Source: Acidimicrobiales bacterium (GTDB lineage: Bacteria > Actinomycetota > Acidimicrobiia > Acidimicrobiales > CADCSY01). From it: a stretch of DNA of 64,000 nucleotides. Under the pieces are notes generated by a model. It was not told the DNA's origin. It did not search any database and saw only the letters and a list, made by a program, of their open reading frames with translations. The position numbers and the translations under genes are program-made. The stretch is taken from contig DATKDW010000083.1 in NCBI GenBank assembly GCA_035512495.1, positions 6,045-70,044 on the forward strand. The letters are read 5' to 3'. Shown here piece after piece: positions 455 through 17,374 of this stretch (its first letter is position 1; each line of letters begins with the position of its first letter).

Positions 455-645
455 CCAGCGCACTGGGGAAAGCGACAACTCACCGGGTCAGCCAGCGATG
501 TGAGGTGTCCGCAAAGTGCCGGTGGCCGCGTGGAGGCCGAGCCGCCCCCGGTAGGCGTCCCAGAAGGCCCGACGATTGGGTGATTCGTTCCGACGTTGGT
601 GGCAGCACAGGTTGTTGTCGTTGCTGTTCTGGAACGTCTCGCAGG

Positions 646-1371
646 GTGCGGCCGTCTACGTTCTTCACCGTGCCGGGCGAGTGGGACGACGAGACCGAGA
701 ACTGGCTGCGGTGGGCCAGGACCCCCGGCTTCGACGCGTACTGGTACTACCGGGACGCGTTCTTCGACTCGCTTCTTCCCACTCCTCGCGGACGCACGCT
801 CGAGATCGGGTGCGGTGAAGGACGGGTCGCTCGCGACCTTGGTGAACGGGAACACCAGGTCACAGCGCTCGACTCGGCAGGTGCCCTCGTCCAACACGCG
901 CGCGACGCAGACACGCAAGGCCTCTATCTCGTGGGCGAGGGGGCTCGGCTACCGGTGAGAGACCGCTCCTTCGACCTCGTCGTCGCGTACAACGCCTTGC
1001 AAGTGGTCGATGACATGGCCCAGACGGTGGTCGAGAGCGCCAGAGTGCTTCGCCCAGGTGGTCATCTGTGCTTCTGCGTCGCCCATCCCGTTACCGACAT
1101 GGGACAGTGGATCCATGCGCACGAGACGTCGAGCCTCGCACTGCGAGTCCCGTACTTCGAGAGCACTCGAGTCGAGGACACGGTCGAGAAGGACGGTCTG
1201 CGAATGACCTTCCGCGGTTGGACCTACACGCTGGAGGACTACGCGGTGGCGCTTGAAGACGCCGGCTTCGCGATCGAAGCCATCCGAGAGCCGAAGCCAG
1301 TCGGCGACGACCGCTACCAGCAGTGGGGGGACCTGCCGTTGTTCATGAACGTCCGGGCTGTCAGGCGGTAG
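646..1371 (+). CDS. class I SAM-dependent methyltransferase
   Basis: Taken from ORF 334..1371. SAM motif I is LEIGCGEGRVARDL, followed by DLVVAYNALQ and LRPGGHL. The start is set at in-frame GTG 646 because the upstream part of the ORF is R/P-rich and probably not coding. Confidence 0.8.
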   Translation: MRPSTFFTVPGEWDDETENWLRWARTPGFDAYWYYRDAFFDSLLPTPRGRTLEIGCGEGRVARDLGEREHQVTALDSAGALVQHARDADTQGLYLVGEGARLPVRDRSFDLVVAYNALQVVDDMAQTVVESARVLRPGGHLCFCVAHPVTDMGQWIHAHETSSLALRVPYFESTRVEDTVEKDGLRMTFRGWTYTLEDYAVALEDAGFAIEAIREPKPVGDDRYQQWGDLPLFMNVRAVRR

Positions 1372-1518
1372 TCGTCGGGAGCGTCTCCGGCCTGAGGCAG
1401 CATGCTCGCGGGCATTCCGAGAGCCGTGAGCTCTCAACCACGGGTCTCTCCCAGAACGTGCCGGCCTATCGGCATGGGGCATGGCCCCGAGGTGCCCGTG
1501 CGCAGCGCATAGATCACC

Positions 1519-1620
1519 CGCCCCATAATCCCGACTTCGGTCGATGCCGAGCGTCCCTAACGGCGTGTCGCGAGCGCACGGACGGGCCCGCGCGGCGACC
1601 GCGAACTCAGAATCGCAGTG
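1519..1620 (+). repeat. long-form copy of the intergenic repeat family (degenerate)
   Basis: Begins with CGCCCCATAATCC, one mismatch from the 13-mer CGCTCCATAATCC found at 1981 and 13506. A GC-rich block follows (GCGAGCGCACGGACGGGCCCGCGCGGCGACCGC) that loosely resembles the repeat core. Confidence 0.35.
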
Positions 1621-1969
1621 GCGGATCGTGACGCGGAATCGTGCTTGGTCGGCCCGCGAGCCACCGCAAGAGATCCCCATTGCTTGCCGTACGGTCAACG
1701 AGTGTCGTTCCGAGCGCCTTGCGCTGGTACCGCAGCATGAAGGTGAGCGCCTCGGTGAGAGTTGCTGGCTCGTCTGGCGGCTCCAGACCGTTCGCTCGCC
1801 GAAGGTCGTCGTGATGAAGCCAAACCTCGGCGAGAGACACTGCTCCCACGCCGCCGCGAGCGAGCAGTCGAGGTGCTGGCGTTCGGAGTGCCTCGACGGC
1901 CACATCGAAGGGCAGGCGTCTGAATGCGCGGATCGCAGCTCGCCCTAATTGGCAGAGACCCGAGGGCAC
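1607..1969 (-). pseudogene. mycothiol-dependent maleylpyruvate isomerase / DinB-like family, C-terminal fragment only
   Basis: The 120-aa ORF contains EVWLHHDDLRRANG, typical of the TIGR03085-like family (usually about 200 aa). An in-frame stop lies 3 codons upstream of the GTG. No N-terminal domain fits in the 160 bp before the next gene. Confidence 0.45.
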
Positions 1970-1980
1970 CGCCGATCAGC

Positions 1981-2075
1981 CGCTCCATAATCCAAACGAC
2001 CACACTCCAACACCTCTCGGATATTGGCGCATACGCGGGCCCGCTGCTCAGTCCCAGTCGGCGCGGCGGAGGATC
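1981..2075 (+). repeat. long-form copy of the intergenic repeat family
   Basis: Has the exact 13-mer CGCTCCATAATCC. About 28 nt later comes GGCGCATACGCGGGCCCGCTGC...GGCGCGGCGGAGGATC, related to the cores at 4441, 13547 and 15824. Confidence 0.4.
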
Positions 2076-2130
2076 TCGACTGCAACGTCGCGCACTCGTC
2101 TTACGTCGAGCCGGCCACGGCCTGATGGCA

Positions 2131-2907
2131 TCACGATCGCACTGTCCAAGCGGGGAGGTGTCCGGTGGTGTCGTTGCCGAGCGCAGCCTCGACCTCCGCA
2201 AGATTGGGGATCTGGCCGTAGGTCGATGGGCGGGCTTGGCGGACCGACTCGGACAGGAAGTGGTCAACGGCGGCGTCGTTGACGGGCTCGAGGTCGAGGA
2301 AGGACCAGAGGTCGCTCATGACTGCCCGGGCGTCGCCCGGCGACGACTCGTACAGGTCCTCGTAGTCGACGCTCATCAGTCGATCCGGTCCGAGGCCAGC
2401 GACCGCCGCGTCGACGCGGGCCGTCTCGCCGCAGGTCCACTCCATGCGACTGGCCACCTCCGCGACATCGAGGGCCGGATGGCCCCTGTAGTAGTCGGCG
2501 AGGTCCCTCTCCGCGTCCCACGTCTTCCACAACCCCGTGCGCTCAGCGACCACCTGCGAGACGGCGGTTTGCAGCACATTGCGCCGCCGTAACGCGACGA
2601 CCTTCACCTCTGGCCGGCCCACGAGTGCCGCCAGCGCCGCGTCGTCGATCTGGTAGCTGAGCTCCTTGAGCCCCGTGAAGGCGGCGAACAGCTCGTCGAG
2701 CAGGCCCTCGAACAACTCACCGTTGCCGAGCCGGGCCACATAGTCCGGGTTGCTCGCATCCCAGCTTGCGAAGTTCTCGTTGAACGGCTCGTTCACGATC
2801 GACACCTGTGGATGCCGGTCGAGTATCTCGACCAGGCTGTTGCTGCCACTGCGCGGGTGGGCGAGCACGACCACCCGCCATGGCCACCTGGCTCCCCCAT
2901 TCGACAT
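2131..2907 (-). CDS. sulfotransferase family protein (Stf0-like)
   Basis: From ORF 2131..2961. The PAPS-binding loop is VVLAHPRSGSNSL near the N-terminus. The start is moved to ATG 2907 (MSNGGARW). Confidence 0.7.
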   Translation of the reverse strand: MSNGGARWPWRVVVLAHPRSGSNSLVEILDRHPQVSIVNEPFNENFASWDASNPDYVARLGNGELFEGLLDELFAAFTGLKELSYQIDDAALAALVGRPEVKVVALRRRNVLQTAVSQVVAERTGLWKTWDAERDLADYYRGHPALDVAEVASRMEWTCGETARVDAAVAGLGPDRLMSVDYEDLYESSPGDARAVMSDLWSFLDLEPVNDAAVDHFLSESVRQARPSTYGQIPNLAEVEAALGNDTTGHLPAWTVRS

Positions 2908-3055
2908 CGCGGCGCACCCTACGGCCGCCGTGGTGACAGAGCACGAGACTTTCGGCCCCATGGCCGACGTGGTCCGGCCCGAACCCGGCTGGTCTCAGCG
3001 AGGCGTACAGAACGCCGACCGTCGGCGCGGCAAGAAGTGACGTGCGGACGCTGGC

Positions 3056-3595
3056 TTGAGGACGGAGACTCGCGTCGTGGGTGATGCGGACTACGAGGAG
3101 ATTCGGCGGTGCATTGCGAGCGGCACCGCTCGCCTCGAGGTCCGGGCGCTCAGTCCCGACCATCTTGTCGCCATCACTTGGTCCGGGAACCCCACCCACA
3201 TCGAGAACGTGGCGCGCCAGCTCGAACGAGTACCTTCGGGCGAGGTCCAGTACTTGGCCGTCTTCGTCGACGGAGAACCGGTATCGAAGGGCGGTGTCGA
3301 CTTCGCGAAGGAGCCTGGCGCCGGCACCATCTGGCAGCTGGCTACCCACCCTCGGCTCGAAGGTCTCGGGCTCGCCACGACGCTCATCGGAGAGCTCGAG
3401 CTCCGGGCAGCACAGCGCGGCATCACCAACTTGCGGCTAGGTGTCGAGCCAGACAACGAACGCGCCCTCCGTCTCTACGAGCACTTGGGCTACCGCAGGA
3501 TCGGTGAGTCCGAAGCTTCCTGGGAAGCTGAACGCAGTGACGGTTCGCGTTTCCTCCACACGACGAGGATCGCCGAAATGTCAAAGCCAGCCTGA
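3056..3595 (+). CDS. GNAT family N-acetyltransferase
   Basis: The acetyl-CoA motif is LATHPRLEGLGLATTLI, followed by NERALRLYEHLGYR. The start is uncertain: TTG 3056 or GTG 3077. Confidence 0.8.
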   Translation: MRTETRVVGDADYEEIRRCIASGTARLEVRALSPDHLVAITWSGNPTHIENVARQLERVPSGEVQYLAVFVDGEPVSKGGVDFAKEPGAGTIWQLATHPRLEGLGLATTLIGELELRAAQRGITNLRLGVEPDNERALRLYEHLGYRRIGESEASWEAERSDGSRFLHTTRIAEMSKPA

Positions 3596-3622
3596 GTCGG
3601 AGCTGGACCGCACGGAAGGCAC

Positions 3623-3643
3623 CCGAACCAGGCTCGGGTTCGG
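3623..3643 (+). terminator. hairpin downstream of the GNAT gene
   Basis: CCGAACC-aggctcg-GGTTCGG is a 7-bp perfect stem followed by TTG. It lies 28 nt after stop codon 3595. Confidence 0.35.
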
Positions 3644-3736
3644 TTGCAACAGAACGCGCGTCCCGAATGCCACCGTCTCGACCCCAAGACGCGCAAGAGA
3701 ACGGCGCATCGCGCGCACGCTCCGTGCCGGAGCCGA

Positions 3737-4369
3737 TTAGTTCTCGCGCGGGCAGCCAGCTTCGAAGGGAACGCAGTCGAGCAGCGACCCGCCGGCTGCG
3801 GTCCATTGCTGCTCATCGACGGCAACGAGGTGCGCAGCGAGCTCGTTGAGATCGACGCCGACGTCGTATGTCAGCAACGTCGTGGTGTAGTCGGCCGTCA
3901 CTTCGAGGATCACGACCGCCGGATTGCCGTCGACCGCGGCCGACACCAGCGCCGGTTGCCCGTCGACGACCTCCGATCGGAGCTCGAAGCCCGGGAGTTG
4001 ACCGCGCCGCCGTTCGAGACCTGTCCTGTGACCGAAAGTTGTGACGTGCGGGATCGTGTACGAGCCATCGGCGTTGTCCCTGCGAGGTCCGTCGTACTCC
4101 GCGAACCAGTCAACATCCGGGTCCCGCGCCTCAAGTGCGCCGAGGCCTGCCCGGTAGTCGACCGCCTCCGTCAGCTGCCACGTCGGCTCGCCGAGCAGCA
4201 TGAGATGGACTTCGTCTGCCGTTGACTCGGTGCGAGACGTCGAGGTTGCGCTCGCGCTCGGTTGGCTGCTGCCGTCCGTACCGGTGTCATCGCCGCAGGA
4301 GCCAACGACCATGAGCGCGGCTGCAGTCACCAGCCCGGCTCGTGCTCTCGGAGCGCGCCGTCGCCTCAC
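3737..4369 (-). CDS. putative lipoprotein, unknown function
   Basis: The N-terminus MRRRRAPRARAGLVTAAALMVVGSCGDD has a positive n-region, a hydrophobic core and a lipobox-like VGSC. A Ser/Thr-rich linker follows. Confidence 0.65.
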   Translation of the reverse strand: MRRRRAPRARAGLVTAAALMVVGSCGDDTGTDGSSQPSASATSTSRTESTADEVHLMLLGEPTWQLTEAVDYRAGLGALEARDPDVDWFAEYDGPRRDNADGSYTIPHVTTFGHRTGLERRRGQLPGFELRSEVVDGQPALVSAAVDGNPAVVILEVTADYTTTLLTYDVGVDLNELAAHLVAVDEQQWTAAGGSLLDCVPFEAGCPREN

Positions 4370-4382
4370 CGAGACATCCTAG

Positions 4383-4409
4383 TCGCGAGCGCCAAACGCG
4401 CGCTCGCGA
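4383..4409 (-). terminator. perfect 9-bp hairpin between the GNAT (4518) and lipoprotein genes
   Basis: TCGCGAGCG-ccaaacgcg-CGCTCGCGA, read directly from the sequence. Confidence 0.35.
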
Positions 4410-4440
4410 ATCCGGCTTCCGGTCACGGCAGAGCCGCACA

Positions 4441-4512
4441 GACCGGCGCTTCTCCAGCGACGAGCGGGTTGCCGACTGGCGACCAGGAGCGCCGTCCCGA
4501 GCGGCACTTCGG
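4441..4512 (+). repeat. intergenic repeat family, copy A
   Basis: GACCGGCGCTTCTCCAGCGACGAGCGGG...GAGCGGCACTTCGG aligns block-wise with 13547-13625. The CGGCACTTCGG end sits 6 nt from the stop of the minus-strand GNAT gene (4518). Confidence 0.6.
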
Positions 4513-4517
4513 TACGG

Positions 4518-5222
4518 CTACCGATGCGCGTCCTCTGCCAACTCTCGAAGGGACCTCCGTTGACCGCCTCCCTCAACGAAGTTGTCTGCGGACAGCCAAT
4601 TCTTGAAGGCGGGACGGAGCTTTTCCCAGTCAGCATCGGTGATGGCGAACCAGGCGGTGTCGCGGTTGCGGCCCTTGTAGTGCGTCGCCTGCCGGAACGT
4701 TCCCTCGTAGAGGAAGCCGAGTCGCTCGGCGGCCGACCGTGACGGGGCGTTCAAGTCATCGCATTTCCACTCGCAGCGTCGATAACCGAGGTCGAAGCAG
4801 TGGTCGATCATGAGGTAGAGAGCTTCGGTCGCTGCTGTGGTTCGTTGCAGCGACGGAGAGAAGGCGATCGAGCCGATCTCGAGAACACCGCTTTGTTGGT
4901 CGACTCGGAGGTAGCTGGCGAAGCCGACAGGTTTGCTGTCAAGGGTGATGGCGTACGGCTGCCGGTCTGAGTGTCCTGTCATGGCATCGAGTGCGCTTGT
5001 CAGCTCCTCCGGGTTCTGGAACGGGCCGATGGCCATGTAGGTCCAGAGGGATGGGGACGCCTCGGCGAAGGCGGCGAACAGACCGTCGGTGTGCAGCCGC
5101 CTGTCGAGTGGCTCCAATTGAACGAGGTCTCCGGTCAGACCGGTGGGCGATGGCATCGCCGGCGGGGCCCATGCGCCGAGGGCGACGCCGACCGGCTGAC
5201 CGAACTGGTTGACGTCGTGCAC
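4518..5222 (-). CDS. GNAT family N-acetyltransferase (RimJ/RimL-like, about 230 aa)
   Basis: Contains LEIGSIAFSPSLQRTTAATEALYLMIDHCFDLGYRRCEWKCDDLNAPSRSAAERLGFLYEGTFR. Confidence 0.85.
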   Translation of the reverse strand: MHDVNQFGQPVGVALGAWAPPAMPSPTGLTGDLVQLEPLDRRLHTDGLFAAFAEASPSLWTYMAIGPFQNPEELTSALDAMTGHSDRQPYAITLDSKPVGFASYLRVDQQSGVLEIGSIAFSPSLQRTTAATEALYLMIDHCFDLGYRRCEWKCDDLNAPSRSAAERLGFLYEGTFRQATHYKGRNRDTAWFAITDADWEKLRPAFKNWLSADNFVEGGGQRRSLRELAEDAHR

Positions 5223-5698
5223 CTCATGACGGTAGCGACGGTGACTTCGCTGGCAGGTGCGCTTTCCGGCCGTTCCGGGATACTGCGGGCACTGAACCGC
5301 AGCCGCACTCGCCCACGGTCGACGTGGGCGACGCCTAGTCGAACCGGACCGCCGCCGACGACGAGGCCAGCCTCGACGACGGGTGATCGTCCGCTCCGAC
5401 AGTTGGGCACGCGGACAAAAGACGCCTTCCGCCGCAGATGTCGTTCAACCTCTGGCGGTGACGAAGTTGAGGAGATGGTTGGGCACAGAGGGCAGGCAGG
5501 CCTCGCTGTGACGCAGCGAACATCCGCACCGAACGCCCGACGCCGCCCGAACACCGTGGAACGGCTCGCTGCAGCCGCCCAGAACGCGCGCTCCAGAACA
5601 CGGTCATGCCGATCGGGCAAGCCGAGCAGCACTGCGCTTCGCCGAAGCGCTGCGTAGCCGGCGATCTGGGCAGGTCACGGCATCGTTTATCGGTGAGA

Positions 5699-6673
5699 AT
5701 GGGCTTGGTGGAACGACCTCCAGATGCAGATCGGAGAGCGCCTCGGCCGGTGTCGGAGCCGACGCCGAGGGCTGTCGCAGACGTACTCGCTGGGCTCCTC
5801 CCCGGGGTCGACTCAACCGTTGTCGACTGGGGTCAGTGGGACACCGACGGCGATCCCCGGTACCACCGGCGCGGCGTCCTGCTCGCAGGAGGCGAGCTCT
5901 TCGCCAAGTTCGCGTGGTCGGAGGAGGCCGCCGACCCGATCGCACGCGAAGGCCGCATCCTGGAGATCCTCGGACGCACGTCGTTTCCCGCTCCGGAGAT
6001 CGTTGCCGTCCACCCCGACAAGGCTCTGTTCGTGACTCGCCTCGTGCCGGGCGGGCCCGTGACCCCAGCGGGCCTCGGTCAACTGAGCCCGAGGGGCCTC
6101 GACCGCTTCGCCGGCCAGCTCGTCGAGGCCCTCGTGGAGCTTCGCTCCCCCGGGCTGCGAAACGACCTCGTCGCACTCGCCGACCCGAAGCCGCCCAGGG
6201 CCCAGGCAGACCCCGAGGAGCTCCGGGCCGACCTCGAACCGATGATTCGTCCCGATCAGTGGCGTCGCGTGCTCGCACTGCTTGAACGGGTCGAGCTCGT
6301 CCTCGCAACACCAGGGCCTGATCCGGTCGTCCTGCACGGCGACCTGCACGGCTACAACCTCGTCTGGGACGGAGAGCATCTGGCGGCGGTGTGCGACTTC
6401 GAGAGCCTCGCAGTCGGTGACCCTTCCTTCGAGGTCCGGTATTTGCCGGACAACGCCCCCAAGCAGACCTACGTCCGTGCGGTGCTCGACGGGCTTCGCC
6501 GCGCCGGTCACGACGACGATCTGGAGCGCGCACTTGCCTGGCATGTGCTGACTCGTCTGGGCGATGCCCGTTGGCGGACGCTGGCCGGGGTCGATCTCCC
6601 GGGCGGCGGGACGCCTGCGCAGTGGGTCGACGAGCTGTTCGCAGTCCTGGCCGAACACGCTGCCCTCATCTGA
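5699..6673 (+). CDS. aminoglycoside/choline-kinase-type phosphotransferase (APH family)
   Basis: The catalytic loop is VVLHGDLHGYNLVW, with CDFESLAVGDPSFEVRYL (the DFE corresponds to DxG/DFD). The start is placed at ATG 5699. The upstream part of ORF 5606 overlaps repeat-like sequence. Confidence 0.75.
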   Translation: MGLVERPPDADRRAPRPVSEPTPRAVADVLAGLLPGVDSTVVDWGQWDTDGDPRYHRRGVLLAGGELFAKFAWSEEAADPIAREGRILEILGRTSFPAPEIVAVHPDKALFVTRLVPGGPVTPAGLGQLSPRGLDRFAGQLVEALVELRSPGLRNDLVALADPKPPRAQADPEELRADLEPMIRPDQWRRVLALLERVELVLATPGPDPVVLHGDLHGYNLVWDGEHLAAVCDFESLAVGDPSFEVRYLPDNAPKQTYVRAVLDGLRRAGHDDDLERALAWHVLTRLGDARWRTLAGVDLPGGGTPAQWVDELFAVLAEHAALI

Positions 6674-6710
6674 ACAGAGAGTTCGCTCGTTCCGTTCGGG
6701 CGAATGCCGC

Positions 6711-7346
6711 TCAGGGGGCGTCCCATCCGTCGGGCAGTTCAGTTGGTTCGAGCATCTCGTCGGGGACCCCACGGGTCCAGGTCGCCTCATCGAACGGCCA
6801 CGTCCGGTCGCGGATGTCCGCAATGGCTAACTCGGCGGTGGCGTGAATCGATCGAGCTTCGGTGGAGCCGAACAGGCCGACCTCGACTGCGAACTCGAGT
6901 TCGTCGGCGTCCTTCAGCCGCCACTCGTCCAAGTCCGCAGAGACCGTGACATCGAGGACGTCATCACGCGAGTCGAAGCCGACCGTGGTACGGGCCCAAG
7001 GCTGTTCGAGGTTGACGTACCACCCCACGAACCGATTCTCCGTGACATCCCAGGTTCGGATTACCGAGTAGCTGCGGCCGACGGGATGGAGGCGTACGCA
7101 GGGCGGACGGTCCCAGGTGTCGTGGCGTCTCGACCCATCCCATGTGCCCGGCAGGAACGACCTGCCGCGCGGTCCGCCGCGCTCGGCAATTCGCCGCACG
7201 ATCGGCGAGCCAGTCGGCTGGACGACCGCAGCGACGTCGGGCTCATCAAGCAGGACCCGACACCCGAAGACATACCCGACGTCACCACCCGGGCGGGATC
7301 GCCACACCACCTGGGTTCCCGAGGAGAACGGTCGGTCACGACGCAT
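6711..7346 (-). CDS. DUF402 domain protein (FomD-like nucleotide phosphatase fold)
   Basis: WYVNLEQP...DDVLDVTVSADLDEWRLKDADELE is characteristic of DUF402. The start is moved to ATG 7346. Confidence 0.6.
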   Translation of the reverse strand: MRRDRPFSSGTQVVWRSRPGGDVGYVFGCRVLLDEPDVAAVVQPTGSPIVRRIAERGGPRGRSFLPGTWDGSRRHDTWDRPPCVRLHPVGRSYSVIRTWDVTENRFVGWYVNLEQPWARTTVGFDSRDDVLDVTVSADLDEWRLKDADELEFAVEVGLFGSTEARSIHATAELAIADIRDRTWPFDEATWTRGVPDEMLEPTELPDGWDAP

Positions 7347-7494
7347 GCGTCGAGTCTGCACCGGATGCGGAGAGCACCTCTCCCCAAGTGCCAGTAATTG
7401 GCACCAGCTATCAGCCGCTCCGAAATCCGTCACCCTTACCCGACCGGGAACTACCTATCGCCGCGTATTCGGTGATCGAGAGCAGACTGACATT

Positions 7495-8028: not shown

Positions 8029-8050
8029 CGTCGACCGAGGCCAGCACGGG

Positions 8051-8488: not shown

Positions 8489-8552
8489 ACGCGGATCGTC
8501 GCACGCGGCACGCGTGGACCTCAAAGTCGAACGGGTCAGCTCTTGAGGTGGG

Positions 8553-10321: not shown

Positions 10322-10423
10322 CTTTTCCCTTCTCACAACCCGCCGCGAGGGCTTCGCTCGGTCTCGAACCTGCGGCCCTCGCCAGAGACCAGTCCGAGCC
10401 CGTAGCCCCGGCACCGAACCAAG

Positions 10424-10538
10424 CCCCGACGTGCCGATCACCAGCGAGCCTCCGGCCGGGACCGCTCCGGGGAGCGACCGCTCCGATCATCCACTCCCGC
10501 TGGCCTCGACGGTGCGCGAGCCGGCAATCGGCGCGGGT
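10424..10538 (-). repeat. intergenic repeat family, copy E (reverse orientation relative to copies A and B)
   Basis: The reverse complement ends in GATCGGCACGTCGGGG and contains CCAGCGGGAGTGGATGATCGGAGCGG, matching A and B block-wise. It is about 85% identical by eye to copy F over about 95 nt. Confidence 0.6.
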
Positions 10539-10599
10539 CCGAGTCACCAGCGCGCATGGCGCGCGTGACAGCGTCGGGCCCGACGGGCACCATGCGGTC

Positions 10600-11139
10600 A
10601 TGGCTCATCTGGTCGTACTCGTCGGGCCGGTCGGCGCCGGCAAGAGCACGGTCGCCGGTCGGCTTGCGCAGCTTGTGAGGCAGAACGGCATGACCGCGGC
10701 AGACGTCGACATGGACGACGTCGCATTCATGCAGTGCGGCGGCGACGATGTGGAGGAGTTCTGGCGGCGGGCGGCAGTCGCGACGGCCGGGCTCATTCGG
10801 GCATGGTTCGACGCCGGCGTCGACGTTGTCATCACACACGGCCCGTTCTTCGAGTCCGGTGGGTTCGAGATCCTCCGGCACGCGCAACCGGTCGAAGTCG
10901 ACGTCCACCACATTCTGCTCCGCGTCACAGCCGAGGTCGCCATCACCCGTGTCCAGAGCGATCCGACCCGAGGCATTTCGAAGGATCCGACGTTTGTCCG
11001 GGACTCGAACGATCGGCTGCGAGGGCTCAGCGACCTGCTCCCGGTCATGAACCTCGAGCTCGACACGACTCAACGCGGCCCCGACGAGATCGCAGCCGAC
11101 GTGATGGCTGCCGTCACCGCTCCGACGCAACACGCCTGA
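10600..11139 (+). CDS. small P-loop kinase (AAA_33 / chloramphenicol-phosphotransferase-like size)
   Basis: MAHLVVLVGPVGAGKSTVAGRLA is a Walker A motif at the N-terminus. The rest of ORF 9958.. overlaps the previous gene and repeat E. Confidence 0.7.
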   Translation: MAHLVVLVGPVGAGKSTVAGRLAQLVRQNGMTAADVDMDDVAFMQCGGDDVEEFWRRAAVATAGLIRAWFDAGVDVVITHGPFFESGGFEILRHAQPVEVDVHHILLRVTAEVAITRVQSDPTRGISKDPTFVRDSNDRLRGLSDLLPVMNLELDTTQRGPDEIAADVMAAVTAPTQHA

Positions 11140-11238
11140 GTGCCAGCGGGCTGCCGCCGGGACCGCTCCGGGGGAGACCGCTCCGATCATCCAGTCGCGC
11201 TGGCCGTGACGGCGCGCGAGCCGGCAATCGGCGCGCCG
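11139..11238 (-). repeat. intergenic repeat family, copy F (direct repeat of copy E)
   Basis: CCAGCGGGCTGCCGCCGGGACCGCTCCGGGGGAGACCGCTCCGATCATCCAGTCGCGCTGGCCGTGACGGCGCGCGAGCCGGCAATCGGCGCG matches 10441-10535. It starts at the kinase stop codon. Confidence 0.65.
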
Positions 11239-11386
11239 GGAGCTGTTCGACGAGCTGAACGTTCTGCTGCGCTCAAGGGAGTTGCCTGGCATCGACTCGC
11301 ACATGAGGAATAGGTAACGGCCGGGCCGCGGCGCGTGCTCCTGGGACGGCGCCGCCGACGGGTGCTCCTACGGACCGCTGATCGGG

Positions 11387-11743
11387 CTAGCGGAAGAAGC
11401 CCCCGAATGGGCCGAAGTAGGTGGCCCCGAAGCCGTCGAGGACGCCCTTGACCTCGTCGCTCGGCGTTCCGAACACCTGCAGACTCACCGGATCGACGCA
11501 TGCCAGGAACCGCTCCGCGAAGTTGGCTCCGAAGTTCCCGAGGTGCACCATCGTCGCGGCGGAATCGGAGTATCGCTCGTAGATCGCGAGCTTGCCTTCG
11601 GCTTCATCGATGAACCACTCGTAACCCAAGGCGCCCGACTCGTCCTTCGTAGACGACACCATGTCGGCCATGAGCGACCGAAGGTTGTCGAGCTCGCCGT
11701 TCTTCACAGCGACCTGAATCACCCACGAGACTTCGTCTGCCAT
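11387..11743 (-). CDS. ABM-domain (antibiotic biosynthesis monooxygenase-like) protein
   Basis: 118 aa, with WVIQVAVKNGELDNLRSLMADMV...YEWFIDEAEGKLAIYERYSDSAATMVH, the typical ferredoxin-like ABM pattern. Confidence 0.65.
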   Translation of the reverse strand: MADEVSWVIQVAVKNGELDNLRSLMADMVSSTKDESGALGYEWFIDEAEGKLAIYERYSDSAATMVHLGNFGANFAERFLACVDPVSLQVFGTPSDEVKGVLDGFGATYFGPFGGFFR

Positions 11744-11990
11744 TGCAAACCTCCTCGACTGTCTGGGTCAGTCGATTCCCACCCGACGGAACAAGACAGG
11801 ACCCGAGCGACTGCCTCGCCTTAGATCCGGGCTGGGAACACGGATCGCAACGCAACCTAGCCGACGCACCTCTCCTCGCACCGAGAACGCAGACTGCTTC
11901 CTTCCGCGAGCGCGACCGATCGACGGTTCCAGCAGCTCCGCGCCGAGGCCGCACCGAGCGGGCAAGCAGAACGCGCCGACCGATCCCGGC

Positions 11991-12170
11991 GAGGCCGCGG
12001 AACAGATCCTGTTCGTTGGCGACAACCTGCACGACGACATCGGCGGAGCAACCAGGTCCGGCCTGCCGTCAGTCCACATGGATCGAGACGGGTCCTGCCA
12101 GGCTGACGACCACGCCGACATCGCGAGTTGCGTCAGAGACCTCAGATCGCTGCTGGCGTGGCTTGGCTGA
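11991..12170 (+). pseudogene. HAD-superfamily hydrolase, C-terminal remnant
   Basis: A frame not listed in the ORF track reads EAAEQILFVGDNLHDDIGGATRSGLPSVHMDRDGS...LAWLG*. This is HAD motif IV (VGDxxxDIxGA). No start codon or motifs I-III were recognisable upstream. Confidence 0.5.
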
Positions 12171-12285
12171 GCAGCACCGATCACCCGCGCAATGGACCCG
12201 GGCCTCGCGTGCTCCAATCCGTACCGATCGGCGCGTAGCGCGCCGCCGCCCACGAGATGGCATCTGACACCAGAGGGATGGCGGC

Positions 12286-12582
12286 TCAGGCGTCAGGGGC
12301 GGGCTGCCGGAGTGCGTGGCTATCGAGCTCCATTTGGTAGATGCGCTTGAAGTCCTCGATTGCTGCCAACGCTCGCTTCCCATGCGGGCTTGCCGCCATC
12401 TCGCCCTCCTGTCCTTTCACGGGTTCGAAAGAGTGCAGGACGATCTTTTCGAGGAGCTGTCCGAGGGTGAGTCCTTCGAGCTCGGCGAGCGCCTTCAGGA
12501 CCTTCACCATGCTCCGCTCCATCCGGACGCCGATTTGGACGCGATCGACGCGCGTCGGAGCATTCCGTTGGGTCGGGACCAT
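12286..12582 (-). CDS. ribbon-helix-helix (CopG/antitoxin-like) small protein
   Basis: RVQIGVRMERSMVKVLKALAELEGLTLGQLLEKIVL has the beta-strand plus two-helix RHH pattern. 98 aa. Confidence 0.5.
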   Translation of the reverse strand: MVPTQRNAPTRVDRVQIGVRMERSMVKVLKALAELEGLTLGQLLEKIVLHSFEPVKGQEGEMAASPHGKRALAAIEDFKRIYQMELDSHALRQPAPDA

Positions 12583-12622
12583 GGGACCAAGTTACCGTAG
12601 TCCCACCGACCTAGGAGAGACC

Positions 12623-13447
12623 ATGTCCGATCCGTACGCGCTCGCGGTGCACAGCTCCTTCGACGAAGTCGAACCGCAGTTCCATGCCGTGCTGGAAGCG
12701 AGCCTTGACCCCCGTGGTCCAGATGCGCTCTTCGACATCGTCGCTGGGCTCGGACTCGAGAGCGGCGCGGTCGTGCTCGACGCCGGGTGCGGCCGCGGGC
12801 GACAGTCACTGGAGCTGGCGCGGCGATTCGGCTTCGACGTGCTCGGCGTCGACCCCGTCGACCGGCACGCGCCAATCGACAAACAGCTCGCCGAGCGACC
12901 CCTGACGGCCGGATCGGTGCGCTTCACCGAGGGGAGATTCGAGCAGCTGCCAGTCGAGGACTCCTCGATCGACCTGATCTTCTGCCGTGACTCGATCATG
13001 TTCGGTGACCTCGCCGTGACGGCAACCGAGTTCCACCGCGTCTTGCGTCCCGGCGGCCGAGGTCTCGTCTACCTCGTCCTCACCGGTCCACTGATGAGCG
13101 AGCCCGAGGCCGACCACTTCGACCATCTCATGCGCGGCCGAACGCTTCGCCCGGCCGAGATCGACGCAGCACTTGAACGCAACGGTCTCACTGTCAACGA
13201 CCGCATCGACTACAGCGGCGAGTGGGCGGAACGATCCCAGGAGCAGGACGGAGAACCTGCTCGACGACTCCTGTTCGCATCTCGACTACTGAGAAGGCCC
13301 GATCACTACATCCAGAAGTTCGGACAAGACCACTACGACATCATGCTCGGCGACTGCCTCTGGCACGTCTACCGCATGATCGGGAGACTCTCCGGCTACG
13401 CCTGCACCTTCACGCGACCGTTGGCTGCTTCTCCGCCGCCCGAGTAG
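12623..13447 (+). CDS. class I SAM-dependent methyltransferase
   Basis: ATG 12623 is preceded by AGGAGA. Motif I is VVLDAGCGRGRQSLELA, followed by IDLIFCRDSIMF and LRPGGRGLV. Confidence 0.85.
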   Translation: MSDPYALAVHSSFDEVEPQFHAVLEASLDPRGPDALFDIVAGLGLESGAVVLDAGCGRGRQSLELARRFGFDVLGVDPVDRHAPIDKQLAERPLTAGSVRFTEGRFEQLPVEDSSIDLIFCRDSIMFGDLAVTATEFHRVLRPGGRGLVYLVLTGPLMSEPEADHFDHLMRGRTLRPAEIDAALERNGLTVNDRIDYSGEWAERSQEQDGEPARRLLFASRLLRRPDHYIQKFGQDHYDIMLGDCLWHVYRMIGRLSGYACTFTRPLAASPPPE

Positions 13448-13505
13448 AGCCGCCATTGATCGCCAAGGTCGGCGAGACCGAGCAACTGATGCCGCACCGA
13501 GCGCG

Positions 13506-13625
13506 CGCTCCATAATCCGCATCGGCTCCTGCACTTGACCCGAGCAGAACGGCGCTTCTCCAGCGGCGATCGGGACGGCGGGTGCTAGCCAGGCGAGTCC
13601 TCGCGATCGGCACTTCGGCTGCGGG
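13506..13625 (+). repeat. intergenic repeat family, copy B (long form, with the 13-mer)
   Basis: CGCTCCATAATCC is followed 28 nt later by GAACGGCGCTTCTCCAGCGGCGATCGGGACGG...GCGATCGGCACTTCGGCTGCGGG. The CGGCAC end faces the stop (13642) of a minus-strand ORF. Confidence 0.6.
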
Positions 13626-13641
13626 ACCGAGATCAGTCGAT

Positions 13642-14022
13642 CTAGATGAGATGGCCCTCAAAGAACTCGGAGACGTTGTCGAAGCCGGCGGCGGTCAACA
13701 TGCGCTCCTCCTGGGGTGCTGGGTCGGGTGCGGCATCCCGGGTGACGACCGCCAGCACAGCACCTGCGGCTTCGGCCTCAGCTACCGCTCGCACTGCCAC
13801 CTCCGAGTCGATGTTTCCGAGGATGCAGACCGGTCCGCCAGGCGCATAGACCGGCGGCGCAGGCACGAGCATCGCCGTGACCCCTGCGAGCTCCACCTCG
13901 GCAAAACCGACCTCCGCTGGCTGGGAAGGGTCCAGAGGACACACCCACCAACGCGAGACAACGGTCAGTCCGAGGTCCGACAGCATCTGACGCTTTGCGG
14001 TGTCCTGGCGCGCGGTCACCAC
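13642..14022 (-). CDS. hypothetical protein (possibly the chimeric 3' part of a decayed gene)
   Basis: A 126-aa ORF with no recognisable motif. It overlaps the out-of-frame tail of the APH-like ORF 13778..14374. Confidence 0.3.
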   Translation of the reverse strand: MVTARQDTAKRQMLSDLGLTVVSRWWVCPLDPSQPAEVGFAEVELAGVTAMLVPAPPVYAPGGPVCILGNIDSEVAVRAVAEAEAAGAVLAVVTRDAAPDPAPQEERMLTAAGFDNVSEFFEGHLI

Positions 14023-14058
14023 CCGGACTCGGACCGGTCGGGCGAGGGGCTACGGGCC

Positions 14059-14374
14059 AGGGGAAGGGGTACGCCTCGCAAGGGTTGCCCATGGCGACTG
14101 CCTCGGGGATGGCCAGCGGCAACTGGGGGCGTGCCCAGTCGAGCCAGCGGTGGTGGGCTTCGATCGCCTCGTAGCTCGACGCGAAGCTCGGCGCCCGAGG
14201 AAGCCGTAGGACCAAGTCATGACCGAGCCGGAAGATGGCGTTCACGGTCCCGGACGACCGGAGACGCCGCAGCGGCAGCCCTCGCCAGCGAGGGAACTGG
14301 GTGTCGACGAGAGAGCGCGCGAGGGAGTCGTCGATGGGAACCTCGTCGCCGTGGAGGGGAGTGTGATCGGTCAT
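14059..14374 (-). pseudogene. APH-family phosphotransferase, N-terminal lobe only (frameshifted or truncated)
   Basis: The first 105 or so aa of ORF 13778..14374 (SGTVNAIFRLGHDLVLRLPR...LPLAIPEAVAMGNPCEAYPFPW) look like an APH N-lobe. After that the frame turns to G/R/P-rich nonsense, and no HxDLxxxN catalytic loop appears in any frame. Confidence 0.45.
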
Positions 14375-14396
14375 AGACTGGCCTACAGCACCGGTG

Positions 14397-14855
14397 TCAC
14401 CGAACAGGGCTCCCGGCGCTCTCGACCGTTCTGAGGAAGGTCAGGCTCGGCCAATCGATCGTGAGTCCCTCGCCATCATCAAGCGCCACCCACCGACCGG
14501 CGTAGAAGTTGAGAACCTCCGCACACGGGGTCGGTTCCCCGTGCGTCCAGCGGCGAAGGTGCTCTCCGACCACGTGCTCAGCCCTGTCGATGCCGCCGCG
14601 GTTCTGCGCGATCACCGCGCGACCGGGCTTGGTCCGCTTGCGACCGGTGCTCCTGAAGGTCGCCCCCGCGGCGACGCTGCCCCAGAAGCCATCATCGATG
14701 CCGACGGTACCTTCGACCAGCAACTGGAGGAGGTCGTGCGGCATGCCGCCGCGGCCGAGGGCCATCGGGGTGCCGGGGATCCTGGTTCGCTTCCCTCGAA
14801 CTGCCTCCCAGTACGAAAGGCGGTCCTCCACCATCTTGAAGAAGGTGATGCGCAC
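14397..14855 (-). CDS. hypothetical protein
   Basis: A 152-aa ORF of normal composition with a GTG start. No family was recognised. Confidence 0.45.
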   Translation of the reverse strand: MRITFFKMVEDRLSYWEAVRGKRTRIPGTPMALGRGGMPHDLLQLLVEGTVGIDDGFWGSVAAGATFRSTGRKRTKPGRAVIAQNRGGIDRAEHVVGEHLRRWTHGEPTPCAEVLNFYAGRWVALDDGEGLTIDWPSLTFLRTVESAGSPVR

Positions 14856-14901
14856 GAACCGCCACCGTAGGAGCGACTACCTATCACCGACACCAAATAT
14901 C

Positions 14902-14952
14902 GAACGCGGCCGCCTCTCCGGCGAGAAGGATCGGCGCGTCGCGAGCGGTCAA
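14902..14952 (+). repeat. intergenic repeat family, short copy I
   Basis: GAACGCGGCCGCCTCTCCGGCGAGAAGGATCGGCGCGTCGCGAGCGG shares the GAACGSSGC...CTCC.GCG...GATCGGC blocks. It lies 3' of the GT2 gene (stop 14961). Confidence 0.4.
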
Positions 14953-14960
14953 GTCTTCTG

Positions 14961-15749
14961 TCAGGTCGGAGGTGACTCGCAAGCGGCGATCAGAGACGGC
15001 CCGTCGAGCGCTCCCACCTCAGATCGGAAGCGGGTCAGGATCGACTCGTATCTCTCGCGGGCACCTGGGATGCCTCCGAAGTGGGGTGCGTGATGCTCGA
15101 GGGCCCACTCGTAGAGCGGGTGAGAGCGATCATCGCTGGTCACGACGCCCGCGAGGCTTGCCCTGCCCCGGTGAATGAGATACCCGTCGGCTGCGAAAGG
15201 GAAGTTCTCGGCAGCAAGGCCAGCCTGCTGGGCGGCTGCGAGGAGCTCGAACGACGGGTCACCATCGTCCCGGAAGGTGGGTGCACCAGGGTGCCAGATC
15301 TGCATGGGATCGATGAGCAGGCTGTACAGCTCCAAGCGGTGCATCTCATGCCATGGATCCCAGTGGCGCTCGCCGACGATCGCGGCGCCGCTCCCAGCGA
15401 CGGCCAGTGCCTCACGGAGCACGTCGCCACGGCGTATGACCACATCGGAGTCGAGGATCCACACGTAGCGGGGCGGTGTCGGTTGCTCGACAAGCTCTCC
15501 CATCGCCTGGTTCAGGGCTGGGCCGTGGTGAGTGTTCTCGTCGTTGGCGAGCAGTCGGCAGAGGCCTGCCTCGGACGCTTCGGCGAGCAGCCGACCTGAC
15601 CCGTCGCTCGAGCCGTTGTCCACCACAACCACCTCGACGTCATCGTCGAGGACGCGGTGTAGCGACCAAAGAAGCAGCGCGGTGAACTCGATGGTGTTGA
15701 ACGACACGGTGACGACGCTGACCCGGCCTTGACCGATGCTCCCGGACAC
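14961..15749 (-). CDS. glycosyltransferase family 2
   Basis: VSVVTVSFNTIEFTALLLWSL...VVVVDNGSSDGS is the classic GT2 N-terminus. A DSD motif occurs in WILDSDVV. Confidence 0.8.
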   Translation of the reverse strand: MSGSIGQGRVSVVTVSFNTIEFTALLLWSLHRVLDDDVEVVVVDNGSSDGSGRLLAEASEAGLCRLLANDENTHHGPALNQAMGELVEQPTPPRYVWILDSDVVIRRGDVLREALAVAGSGAAIVGERHWDPWHEMHRLELYSLLIDPMQIWHPGAPTFRDDGDPSFELLAAAQQAGLAAENFPFAADGYLIHRGRASLAGVVTSDDRSHPLYEWALEHHAPHFGGIPGARERYESILTRFRSEVGALDGPSLIAACESPPT

Positions 15750-15823
15750 AGAACGAGTATCGACGACGATCGCACCTATCGGGCACTCAGTATCCCCACG
15801 AGCTGGCGCATCGCCTCCGCCCC

Positions 15824-15880
15824 GATCGGCGCATCTCCAGCGTCGATCAGGACGGATGGCGGCTAGGAATCCTGGGCCAG
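15824..15880 (+). repeat. intergenic repeat family, copy C (not adjacent to a gene 3' end)
   Basis: GATCGGCGCATCTCCAGCGTCGATCAGGACGGATGGCGGCTAGG matches the 5' half of copy B (GGCGCTTCTCCAGCGGCGATCGGGACGGCGGGTGCTAGCC). Confidence 0.5.
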
Positions 15881-15997
15881 CCGCGTGTCTGAGTGATGGT
15901 CTCGAGCACGCCGGAGCGCTCTGCCCGCTCAGCAGATCGACGTGCGGATCCGTCGGTGCGAGACTGGGACGACACGGCCATGGATCAGGAGCGCACC

Positions 15998-16393
15998 ATG
16001 TCGGGCCTCGCCATCATCACCGAAGCGTGCATCGGCGTGAAGGACCGTGCGTGTGTCGACGTGTGCCCGGTCCAGTGCATCTACGAGCTCGATCAGGCCA
16101 AGGGTGTGTTGTTCTCCGAGGACGAAGCCGGCAGCGGCGAGATCGAGAACACCCACGCGCCCGACCCGGACTCCATCGGGGTGTTCGGGGACAGCCTGCT
16201 GTACGTGAACCTGGAGGAGTGCACGTCGTGCACCGCCTGCTACCAACCCGACGTCTGCCCTGTCGGTGCGATCTATACCGAGGAAGCCGTGCCCGACGGC
16301 ACCGATCCCAAGGCCTACAACGCCGAGGACCCGCACAAGGGCCACGACCACACCTTCTTCATTCAGCTCAGCCGCGACGTCTTCGCCGACTGA
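15998..16393 (+). CDS. ferredoxin, two Fe-S cluster motifs separated by an unusually long insertion
   Basis: MSGLAIITEACIGVKDRACVDVCPVQCIY carries the Cx7Cx3CP motif. About 50 aa later comes CTSCTACYQPDVCPVGAIY. ATG 15980 is an alternative start. Confidence 0.75.
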   Translation: MSGLAIITEACIGVKDRACVDVCPVQCIYELDQAKGVLFSEDEAGSGEIENTHAPDPDSIGVFGDSLLYVNLEECTSCTACYQPDVCPVGAIYTEEAVPDGTDPKAYNAEDPHKGHDHTFFIQLSRDVFAD

Positions 16394-16688
16394 CGGTGCC
16401 GGCCCGCCATGAGCGGAAACCGGGCAGCCTGGGGGCGGTGTGCCCCGAAGCGAGCGCGATCGCCGGCATCCGATGCGTCGTGTCGACCCCCCTTGAGACC
16501 GAGAGCAGCAACCTCGACGAGGTGTCGCTGTCGCCTCCAGCTGGCCCACGGCTTGACCGTGACGGAAGACGGGCGTTGATCACGGGCCTCCTGTCGGCGA
16601 TGCCAGGCCACTCGGCGGGCCGTCTGAGCAGGACGCCACACGCCTCTGGGCGATGTCTACCGATCGCGGAAGCCTCAAATGCGGACGC

Positions 16689-16745
16689 CTATCGGCGGCA
16701 CCGATCTCCAGAGCGCGTGGTCAGCACGCCGGCACTGCCGCGGTG
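16689..16745 (+). repeat. intergenic repeat family, degenerate copy D
   Basis: CTATCGGCGGCACCGATCTCCAGAGCGCG...CGCCGGCACTGCCGCGG lies 3' of the minus-strand relE (stop 16766), in the same gene-relative orientation as copies A, B and I. Confidence 0.4.
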
Positions 16746-16765
16746 AGCCTCTCCGCGCCGACTGG

Positions 16766-17029
16766 TCAGGATCTGTAGACGTCTCGGCGGTGACCCACGC
16801 TCACCACGAGCACGACGAGGCGACGGTCGTGCACCTCGTAGATGATCCGATAGTCACCGACCCGAACTCGGTAGGCGCGCTCCTCGCCCTTGAGGGCCAC
16901 ACACCCCGGCGGACGAGGCTCGTCTGCCAGCAGGTCGATCGCAGCTCGGATCCGCTGCTGCTCACGCCTGGGCAAACGGGCAAGCGACTTCACCGCTCGA
17001 CGCGCGATGTGGACCTCATAGCGGCTCAC
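16766..17029 (-). CDS. relE: type II toxin, RelE/ParE superfamily
   Basis: 87 aa, with YRVRVGDYRIIYEVHDRRLVVLVVSVGHRRDVY. It overlaps the upstream antitoxin gene by 4 bp. Confidence 0.85.
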   Translation of the reverse strand: MSRYEVHIARRAVKSLARLPRREQQRIRAAIDLLADEPRPPGCVALKGEERAYRVRVGDYRIIYEVHDRRLVVLVVSVGHRRDVYRS

Positions 17030-17277
17030 GCCAAGCCCAGGTCCGCCTTGACCTCATCCCAAGGCACGTAGTCGTCCTCTTCCCGAGCGGCTTCGAGCTC
17101 GTATCGATCGATCGCGTCCTCAGCCGCCTCGACGACCTGGTCGTACAGGTCGGCGTCGAGGATCACGGCCACGCGTCGACCTCGCCGCGTGACATAGACG
17201 GGCTCGCGTGATCGCCTCGCCTCGTCGATGATCTCGGCAAGCCGGCTCCTCGCTTCGCTCACGGCGATATCGCTCAT
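17026..17277 (-). CDS. type II antitoxin, Phd/YefM family
   Basis: MSDIAVSEARSRLAEIIDEARRSREPVYVTRRGRRVAVILDADLYD has an acidic C-terminus. ATG 17292 is an alternative start. Confidence 0.85.
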   Translation of the reverse strand: MSDIAVSEARSRLAEIIDEARRSREPVYVTRRGRRVAVILDADLYDQVVEAAEDAIDRYELEAAREEDDYVPWDEVKADLGLA

Positions 17278-17335
17278 GTACGAATCGTACATGAAGCCTC
17301 GGCGGGGGCGCCTCCTCGGGCTCGGGCGCCTTCCA

Positions 17336-17374
17336 CGGCAGAGGTCAGGGGTTCGAGTCCCTTTGCGCCCACCA
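17336..17374 (+). other. tRNA 3' remnant (variable loop, T-arm, acceptor 3' strand, encoded CCA); not a complete tRNA
   Basis: CGGCAGAGGTC-AGGGG-TTCGAGT-CCCTT-TGCGCCC-A-CCA. The T-loop TTCGAGT and stem AGGGG/CCCTT are canonical. No D-arm or intact anticodon arm lies upstream. Confidence 0.6.

Follow-up and report, generated by a model that had tools for sequence, protein, structure and literature searches.

Co-oriented intergenic repeats at the module junctions of a compositionally foreign accessory gene array in an Acidimicrobiales bacterium

We analysed a 64,000-nt stretch of the genome of an uncultured soil Acidimicrobiales bacterium (assembly GCA_035512495.1, contig DATKDW010000083.1, positions 6,045 to 70,044; hereafter the window), the first 17.4 kb of which carry about 22 small genes, confirmed by Pfam and split roughly evenly between the two strands. 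By family, most of their products are enzymes of small-molecule acetylation, phosphorylation, methylation, sulfation or glycosylation. This region is compositionally foreign and modular, with one copy of a ~90-nt repeat, here termed element E, at each module junction and all copies in the same orientation. Other genomes also contain the E family, and at least one module bounded by E, in different contexts. The region is, with high confidence, an acquired accessory array in decay. As to mechanism, we infer at even chances that the module junctions were made by recombination at E, with a recombinase supplied in trans.

Composition sets the region apart, as the original prediction had proposed for 1–17.4 kb. 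In 500-nt windows compared by the Mann–Whitney test, the GC content is 0.663 ± 0.019 across positions 1–17374 and 0.722 ± 0.027 across 17395–64000 (p=4e-15). The GC content at third codon positions (GC3) spans 0.69–0.86 in the array genes (n=22, mean 0.79) and 0.88–0.98 in flanking genes (n=22, mean 0.93), the latter being long open reading frames (ORFs) chosen by a coding-like GC pattern and hence biased upwards; the ranges are disjoint (U=0, p=1.4e-8), and, selection bias notwithstanding, no credible gene of lower GC3 was seen among the flanking genes. The right-hand GC3 step falls exactly between the genes for a Phd antitoxin (0.79) and a TauD dioxygenase (0.90), that is, at the tRNA scar described below.

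A search seeded with a 127-nt, 72%-identical pair (4389–4512 and 13494–13618) and iterated with nhmmer recovered 12 strong and one to three weak copies of E in the window, all on the plus strand and all intergenic. Some copies were recovered by models that excluded them (for instance E10, nhmmer E-value 0.021), and a sequence-only Infernal model built from 24 copies recovers the same 12 at E-values ≤ 5e-7, with weak extra copies at 9140–9193, 5503–5559 and 13587–13624. The other 47 kb of the window contain none, their sole match being at chance level (E-value 0.009, minus strand). Along the sequence, the strong copies are E1 (1485–1583), which is nearest the metagenome consensus, was found by nhmmer and cmsearch and shares 83–89% identity over 44–60 nt with copies in contigs L086, L087 and L091; E2 (1964–2045); E3 (3631–3725); E4 (4372–4512, core 4372–4467), which has the 127-nt, 72%-identical stretch in common with E8; E5 (5559–5654); E6 (7385–7480); E11 (10442–10548); E12 (11144–11248); E7 (12154–12250); E8 (13473–13618, core 13473–13574, followed by a partial tandem box B); E10 (14857–14953); and E9 (15756–15849). 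The plus-strand match at 9140–9193, outside all seed alignments, is a possible degenerate copy (cmsearch E-value 0.0011; nhmmer 0.17–0.21). Another degenerate copy, suggested by eye between pyrF and the first methyltransferase gene (~508–590), is supported by no model.

Element E fills 12–13 of the 16 spacers of at least 90 nt, and the spacers at E3, E4, E7, E9 and E10 (106–149 nt) are hardly more than E itself. Four copies (E2, E3, E8 and E12) sit between convergent gene ends and three (E5, E6 and E9) between divergent gene starts, while the remaining ones follow one gene and precede the next. Because convergent, divergent and tandem gene junctions alike carry E, its orientation is independent of that of the genes, and the four copies between convergent ends imply that E is no mere promoter. 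Between E1 and E2, over 380 nt, there is nothing but a junk-like ORF (1544–1948). A repeat family in the spacers had already been recognized in the original prediction; it is real, with independent statistical support for its 12 copies, and was if anything understated, since the co-orientation of the copies, their presence at nearly every junction and the recurrence of the family in other genomes make E the organising feature of the array.

The layout of E comprises a box A, GC(A/G)CCGATCA(C/G)CCGC(C/T)CCATAATCC, about 28 variable nt and a box B, (T/G)ATCGGCGCnTC. With a mean column identity of ~46%, the copies are old and diverged. Parts of box A (GC[A/G]CCGATC) and box B (GATCGGCGC) are 8–9-nt inverted repeats at the consensus level, ~50 nt apart; 67.6% of the box A/box B cells pair, against 20–37% in slid controls, and covariation is not above that of shuffles. 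Since the boxes are complementary at the consensus without covarying, the pattern is best read as independently conserved, double-stranded half-sites rather than a base-paired stem. Several other identities of E were tried and rejected. A structured RNA or attC site is opposed by the lack of any Rfam match in the window, by the 0 pairs that RNAalifold finds on 10 and on 24 copies and by the missing covariation; single-strand folding gives z-scores of about −2 to +1.4, no better than shuffles and inconsistent between copies. A coding remnant is equally untenable, as the ATG in GGATTATGG opens just short, unrelated ORFs across contigs. Neither a sigma-70 promoter nor an intrinsic terminator is predicted, and four copies are situated between convergent genes. 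The CATAAT in box A raised the idea of a dif/Xer site of the kind used by integrative mobile elements exploiting Xer (IMEX), and ATAA-N6-TTAT or any dif-like site is absent throughout the window.

The E family extends beyond the window. When metagenomes were scanned for a 20-nt pattern from box A, 17 loci matched, roughly as many as chance would give, and a whole E is present at four of them. In these four, the 40-nt left part is nearly identical (GTGCCGGTACGCCGCGCACAGATCACCCGCCCCATAATCC) and box B is equally distant, and the flanks are unrelated. Contig L087 has two co-oriented copies amid RibD_C, GNAT and NUDIX genes, and single copies adjoin an ABM gene in L086 and glyoxalase genes in L091. 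(The sole recombinase seen in an E-bearing contig is an IS110-family (DEDD) transposase, whose gene, at 3792–4682 of L091, lies 3.6 kb from the E of that contig, and no link to E is shown.) Contig L104 carries four co-oriented copies, one recovered by a model that excludes it (E-value 4e-5), and L109 carries three, recovered by a model built without them (E-values 1e-7 to 3e-4), among AAA_33 kinases, a methyltransferase and genes of no assigned function. Copies flanking the kinase of L109 were seen by eye and have no cmsearch support. Genes between E copies in these other contigs encode GNAT, NUDIX, RibD_C, glyoxalase, ABM, AAA_33 kinase and methyltransferase proteins. Within the 1.52 Mb of fetched DNA, E is restricted to the E-bearing contigs named here and co-oriented in every array, and it was not found in ~1.3 Mb of other Acidimicrobiia loci or in phage and plasmid collections. 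Altogether 21 of 21 copies agree in orientation within their arrays (12 in the window, 4/4 in L104, 3/3 in L109 and 2/2 in L087), for which the chance given the first copy of each array is 2^-17.

The recurring module is that of kinase-3, a 179-aa CPT/AAA_33 kinase (plus strand, 10600–11139, locus tag VMN58_12150), whose module (10555–11139) is bounded by E11 on the left and E12 on the right, two copies with 88% identity. The module opens with a promoter-like GTGACA-N17-CACCAT (10555–10600) that is conserved in at least five loci (the window, L101, L104, L106 and L109), in two of which, L101 and L106, no E was detected. The kinase-3 module thus brings along the signal for its expression, which is distinct from E. 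The motif ends 6–8 nt before the start codon of the kinase, which would imply a leaderless or near-leaderless mRNA. Homologues of kinase-3 number only 45, all from metagenomes or Acidimicrobiales metagenome-assembled genomes (MAGs), and they occur in at least seven different neighbourhoods. Promoter and kinase (window 10554–11142) share 81% DNA identity with L104 5546–6135, and E12 aligns with L104 copies of E (window 10993–11235 against L104 3745–3996, 70% identity). In L104, E flanks the kinase on both sides, homology with the window ends at the E copies and the neighbouring genes differ; a second, 5′-truncated kinase and then another E are also present there.

In contig L102, the same kinase gene (83% identity) shares a 1.69-kb module, which has no integrase, with the gene for another CPT-like kinase. 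On either side of this module lies a copy of a 130-nt direct repeat (93%), composed of the final 26 nt of an intact tRNA-Gln next to it and the 105 nt that follow. More broadly, L102 1477–6806 is a 5.3-kb integrase-less island at that intact tRNA-Gln(CTG), with a distal scrap of the tRNA 3′ end 5.3 kb away, another pair of repeats, of 126 nt (94%), that encloses an APH gene, and AAATTGGCGTCAA iterons. L102 is a textbook integrase-less accretion structure, and the insertion of single modules at repeated att-like sites thus takes place in this lineage.

The right edge of the array carries a toxin–antitoxin (TA) pair and a tRNA remnant, both foreseen in the original prediction and both confirmed. 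A ParE/RelE-superfamily toxin (minus strand, 16766–17029; PF05016, E-value 1.2e-12, 49 bits), whose gene has 77% DNA identity to a Dietzia plasmid toxin, follows a Phd/YefM antitoxin (minus strand, 17026–17292; PF02604, E-value 5.1e-15, 55 bits) in the layout of type II systems, antitoxin first and with a 4-nt overlap. Beside them, a 44-nt tRNA 3′ fragment (plus strand, 17331–17374) comprises an anticodon-arm remnant, the variable loop AGGTC, the T-arm AGGGG-TTCGAGT-CCCTT, the 7-nt acceptor 3′ strand TGCGCCC, the discriminator A and CCA, and it ends 20 nt before the TauD stop codon. The fragment occurs once in the window and scores just 16.3 bits with the Rfam tRNA model (E-value 0.35); its acceptor sequence and A73 would suggest tRNA-Val. 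It is a putative att scar. A tRNA 3′ scar beside an addiction module is the usual mark of an element once integrated in a tRNA gene.

The left end is less clear. A fragment on the plus strand would place the intact tRNA gene to its left, and neither an intact tRNA gene (ARAGORN) nor a tRNA 5′ half is present in the window, so the partner would lie left of base 1 or have been lost. There is no composition step on this side, the low-GC block being present from base 1. The first gene (2–454, plus strand) is the genuine C-terminal half of a type-2 pyrF (orotidine-5′-phosphate decarboxylase; PF00215; TIGR02127 positions 124–252 of 261, 79.7 bits) with an island-like GC3 of 0.81, and may or may not lie outside the island. 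For these three reasons, a left boundary at pyrF is not established.

The mechanism to which we give even chances can be outlined as follows. An element would once have integrated at a tRNA gene, with the tRNA 3′ scar and the Phd–ParE module as its right end. The array consists of at least 12 modules of 0.4–3 kb, each with one to four small genes on either strand, and these would have been gained, lost and shuffled singly by recombination at E. The agent would most likely be a site-specific recombinase that works on double-stranded DNA and has its gene elsewhere, and the outcome would be functionally like an integron cassette array or a tandem accretion of integrase-less elements. Subsequent decay would explain the truncated genes, the single empty module and the lack of a recombinase. 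If circular modules insert repeatedly at a recombination site, the expected product is a series of co-oriented direct repeats separating modules whose genes point either way. Also counting in favour are the modular integrase-less islands that this lineage builds at repeated att-like sites, as in L102, and truncated genes that abut E, namely a HAD hydrolase remnant whose stop codon abuts E7 in the window and the 5′-truncated kinase of L104.

Several observations weigh against recombination at E. No integrase or transposase domain occurs in any ORF tested within 1–29 kb, in keeping with the original prediction, which had seen neither these genes nor an intact tRNA, and no recombinase gene was seen in the window (64 kb), L104 (9 kb), L109 (6 kb) or L087 (9 kb). 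Only one module is common to different genomes. E11 and E12 are more alike than either is to its L104 counterpart, which local duplication or gene conversion would also explain, and in L102, L105, L106, L110 and L111 the same kinase gene is unaccompanied by E. Element E lacks both the usual core-site layout, with close inverted arms around a 6–8-bp spacer, and a conserved hairpin. Finally, the E repeats are unrelated to the tRNA fragment, and the tRNA integration and the E junctions may therefore have separate histories.

Alternatively, E could be a selfish or structural intergenic repeat that spread into the spacers of a dispensable region whose genes were already in place, with gene gain unrelated to E and co-orientation reflecting strand-specific insertion relative to replication. 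Repetitive extragenic palindromes and bacterial interspersed mosaic elements (REP/BIME) or miniature inverted-repeat transposable elements (MITEs) are likewise short, non-coding and intergenic, with many diverged copies and short inverted boxes, and the consensus-level inversion of boxes A and B, the strictly intergenic position and age of the copies, and the occurrence of the kinase gene without E all agree with such an origin. We nevertheless regard it as unlikely. The copies are tightly clustered, with 12 in 15 kb against none in the adjacent 47 kb and none in ~1.3 Mb of related loci, and across the 64 kb plus 1.5 Mb of loci E is confined to accessory arrays and fully co-oriented, unlike REP/BIME and MITEs; a symmetric inverted-repeat element is not expected to agree in orientation in 21 of 21 cases. 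Nor does E have a stable hairpin or clear terminal inverted repeats at its ends. Many spacers are so short that no room is left for an earlier spacer, and the homology of the common kinase module ends at the E copies.

The half-site architecture also invites a regulatory reading, in which E is a shared cis-regulatory site, formed by two inverted half-sites of one regulator beside an AT-rich patch, and the array is a co-regulated set of enzymes for small-molecule modification, amounting to an intrinsic resistance or detoxification regulon, arrays elsewhere sharing E through a shared regulator. Two conserved boxes without covariation resemble independent protein-binding half-sites, one or more gene starts lie next to eight of the 12 copies, and one functional theme (GNAT, APH, CPT-like kinases, methyltransferases, ABM, glyoxalase) runs through the window, L087, L102, L109 and L111. 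This explanation is, in our estimation, quite improbable, as E2, E3, E8 and E12 lie between convergent gene ends, the orientations of E and of the genes are independent, and the promoter of kinase-3 is conserved outside E and kept in genomes without E. Moreover, no sigma-70-like promoter is predicted in the region, and L102 and L111 carry the same kinds of genes without E.

There remains little probability that no island exists and that the region is a native, weakly expressed and fast-evolving segment, its low GC3 reflecting relaxed codon selection and its tRNA fragment a chance match or an ancient relic. The Acidimicrobiales-like sources of all kinase-3 homologues, the similar GC3 of the housekeeping pyrF and the lack of a relative close enough to show the absence of the region would suit this account. 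It is contradicted by disjoint GC3 ranges with a step exactly at the tRNA scar, a TA module at the edge, truncated genes, a kinase module in at least seven neighbourhoods, and GNAT2, of which a stretch (4577–4890) matches GNAT genes from replicons of Burkholderia, Ralstonia and Caballeronia at 70–76% DNA identity over 240–315 nt. (Such identity to betaproteobacterial genes is unusually high across phyla.) The original description of a horizontally assembled, decaying, cassette-like locus hence stands on intrinsic evidence, that is, composition, scar and TA pair, truncated genes, the recurring module and GNAT2, whereas its left boundary at pyrF and its absence from relatives are not established (79% for the nearest TauD, no synteny). 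A defence island was rejected, PADLOC matches being trivial and P-loop only, as was a plasmid or phage origin, for which there are short matches to GNAT2 and ParE only and none to E. Tandem duplication of paralogues was rejected as well: the methyltransferases MT1 and MT2 share just 36% identity over 96 aa, and the GNATs and the kinases are mutually unrelated.

A classical integron remnant, that is, a cluster of attC sites lacking an integrase (CALIN), is effectively refuted, despite co-oriented repeats of attC-like length (~90 nt) spaced 0.4–3 kb apart and the kind of content that sedentary integrons usually have (GNATs, a TA pair, a lipoprotein, genes of no assigned function): E is not an imperfect palindrome and has neither a folded-strand signature nor R/L box pairing (RNAalifold 0 pairs, no common fold), genes lie about half on each strand, the kinase-3 module, at least, brings a promoter of its own, neither IntI nor attI is seen in the window, and genome surveys found no complete integrons in Actinobacteria (PMC4889954; bioRxiv 10.1101/2022.02.28.482270). 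The likeness to sedentary integron arrays and CALINs is nonetheless considerable, comprising short unrelated accessory genes, single modules that recur elsewhere with other neighbours, and co-oriented repeats (~60–140 nt) that separate the modules and are more alike within an array than between arrays, as attC sites are (PMC4889954).

Two further known systems bear comparison with the array. Tandem accretion of integrase-less islands at a tRNA or tmRNA gene, of the CIME/ICESt1 type, for which a CIME definition and a three-step model have been given (PMC5704250) and of which the ssrA islands of Dehalococcoides offer an example (PMC3146451), likewise yields an island edge with a tRNA 3′-end repeat, decayed units without an integrase and tandem modules with att-like direct repeats. 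L102 fits this scheme literally, with its tRNA-Gln and 130-nt repeats, whereas in the window the junction repeats do not copy the tRNA 3′ end, the tRNA fragment is single-copy and the modules are far smaller than typical CIMEs (0.4–3 kb, often one gene) with at least 12 junctions. The pdif modules of Acinetobacter plasmids are likewise small, carry resistance, TA or accessory genes in either orientation, have short recombination sites at their ends and occur in varied contexts. Their sites are 28-bp XerC/XerD sites that alternate in orientation, against the ~90 nt and constant co-orientation of E.

Gene identities in the array rest on Pfam and NCBIfam profile searches, which bear out nearly all of the original gene list; the GNATs number three ORFs, the third with two GNAT-like segments, against four intact ones in that list. 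From left to right, the first genes encode a class-I S-adenosylmethionine (SAM) methyltransferase, MT1 (580–1371, plus strand; Methyltransf_11, E-value 3.5e-20; start uncertain among 580, 646 and 670), a sulfotransferase (2131–2961, minus strand; Sulfotransfer_3 and Stf0), GNAT acetyltransferase 1 (3056–3595, plus strand; Acetyltransf_1, E-value 2.6e-14), a lipoprotein of no matching family with a signal peptide and the lipobox VVGSC (3737–4369, minus strand) and GNAT2 (4518–5222, minus strand; Acetyltransf_3). They are followed by an APH-family phosphotransferase (5606–6673, plus strand; PF01636, E-value 5.5e-19, profile positions 19–235 of 239), whose true start is probably downstream of E5, a DUF402/FomD-like protein (6711–7433, minus strand; PF04167; NF049998 at 89 bits, under the family cut-off), the adenylate-kinase-like P-loop kinase 1 (7498–8028, plus strand), which belongs to an NCBIfam family named 'DNA topology modulation protein', a PPOX-class (pyridoxamine 5′-phosphate oxidase-like) protein (8054–8512, minus strand; Pyridox_ox_2 and PNPOx_N), the AAA_33 P-loop kinase 2 (8553–9035, minus strand; PF13671, E-value 3.7e-19) and GNAT 3 (9398–10321, plus strand, start uncertain), with Acetyltransf_1 at residues 158–222 of the ORF 8999–10321 and a second GNAT-like segment that resembles GNAT1.

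Beyond kinase-3 lie an ABM (antibiotic biosynthesis monooxygenase-like) protein (11387–11743, minus strand; PF03992), the HAD hydrolase remnant (11982–12170, plus strand), which retains the C-terminal part only (Hydrolase_like, profile positions 16–59 of 75), and the class-I methyltransferase MT2 (12341–13447, plus strand, start uncertain, domain at 12725–13192), together with a doubtful ribbon–helix–helix (RHH) ORF (12286–12582, minus strand). The remaining genes comprise an APH remnant reduced to the N-lobe (13778–14374, minus strand; PF01636, profile positions 5–95 of 239), whose C-terminal part was not found in neighbouring frames, a 152-aa ORF with GC3 0.82, no family match and no assigned function (14397–14855, minus strand), a family-2 glycosyltransferase (GT2; 14961–15749, minus strand; PF00535) and a 2x[4Fe-4S] ferredoxin (15893–16393, plus strand; Fer4 families). 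At least three gene remnants had been claimed originally. Two are verified, the HAD C-terminal and APH N-terminal parts, while the ORF 1544–1948 has a junk-like translation of non-coding look and no Pfam match. The APH and the third P-loop kinase were rightly listed in the original prediction, and the opposing ORFs 5813–6823 and 10438–11304 on the minus strand, exact antisense of APH and kinase-3, were rejected as genes; for the former, no homologue, itself included, occurs among 5.8 billion proteins. Both antisense ORFs have coding-like GC1/GC2/GC3 values (0.77/0.51/0.78), a frame plot being blind to strand when GC1 is close to GC3.

To the right of the array, the TauD/TfdA dioxygenase gene (17395–18453, minus strand; GC3 0.90) is the first with core composition. 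Relatives were compared via the best 80 TauD loci in reference genomes, all from Acidimicrobiia or related MAGs and 60–76% identical, the next-best database protein reaching 79%. Around relatives' TauD (72–79% identity), only the TauD–luciferase pair is conserved, and neither pyrF nor island genes adjoin it. This pair of dioxygenase and luciferase-like monooxygenase genes (window 17395–19552) is present in 54 of the 80 Acidimicrobiia loci (L001–L080), in surroundings unlike those of the window. Elsewhere in the window, the cumulative GC skew is flat over 1–22 kb and then declines steadily (about −0.1 per kb window) up to 64 kb. An HNH endonuclease ORF (25779–26351, minus strand) followed by ~1.3 kb at GC 0.67 with ORFs lacking Pfam matches (25779–27600 overall) may be a second small accessory patch, and two more 1-kb GC dips, at 41001–42000 (0.650), after the LarA-like domain of the ORF 39357–42179, and at 57001–58000 (0.668), lie within surrounding DNA of 0.70–0.77.

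Islands that combine low GC with a tRNA scar and a TA pair are commonplace. To our knowledge, a conserved, unstructured and always co-oriented junction repeat in arrays of modifying enzymes has so far not been described in a phylum without integrons, and a literature search for comparable junction-repeat arrays found nothing comparable. Actinomycetota are major antibiotic producers and resisters, and how their banks of modifying enzymes are assembled is poorly described, since surveys found no complete integrons in them. Element E provides a searchable handle, as it marks junctions, keeps one orientation and recurs in several uncultured soil lineages beside GNAT, APH, CPT-like kinase and methyltransferase genes. 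Tentatively, and with the balance of probability against it, soil Acidimicrobiales might possess a hitherto undescribed, integron-like system of gene capture, with E, a double-stranded site of ~90 nt, as its recombination site and with a recombinase encoded elsewhere that inserts and excises single-gene modules. Were this true, modules carrying their own promoter, in either orientation, would be built into arrays of enzymes that modify antibiotics or xenobiotics, in a phylum practically devoid of integrons. Even if E proved to be regulatory or selfish, the arrays would constitute a compact catalogue of candidate resistance and detoxification enzymes in an under-studied class.

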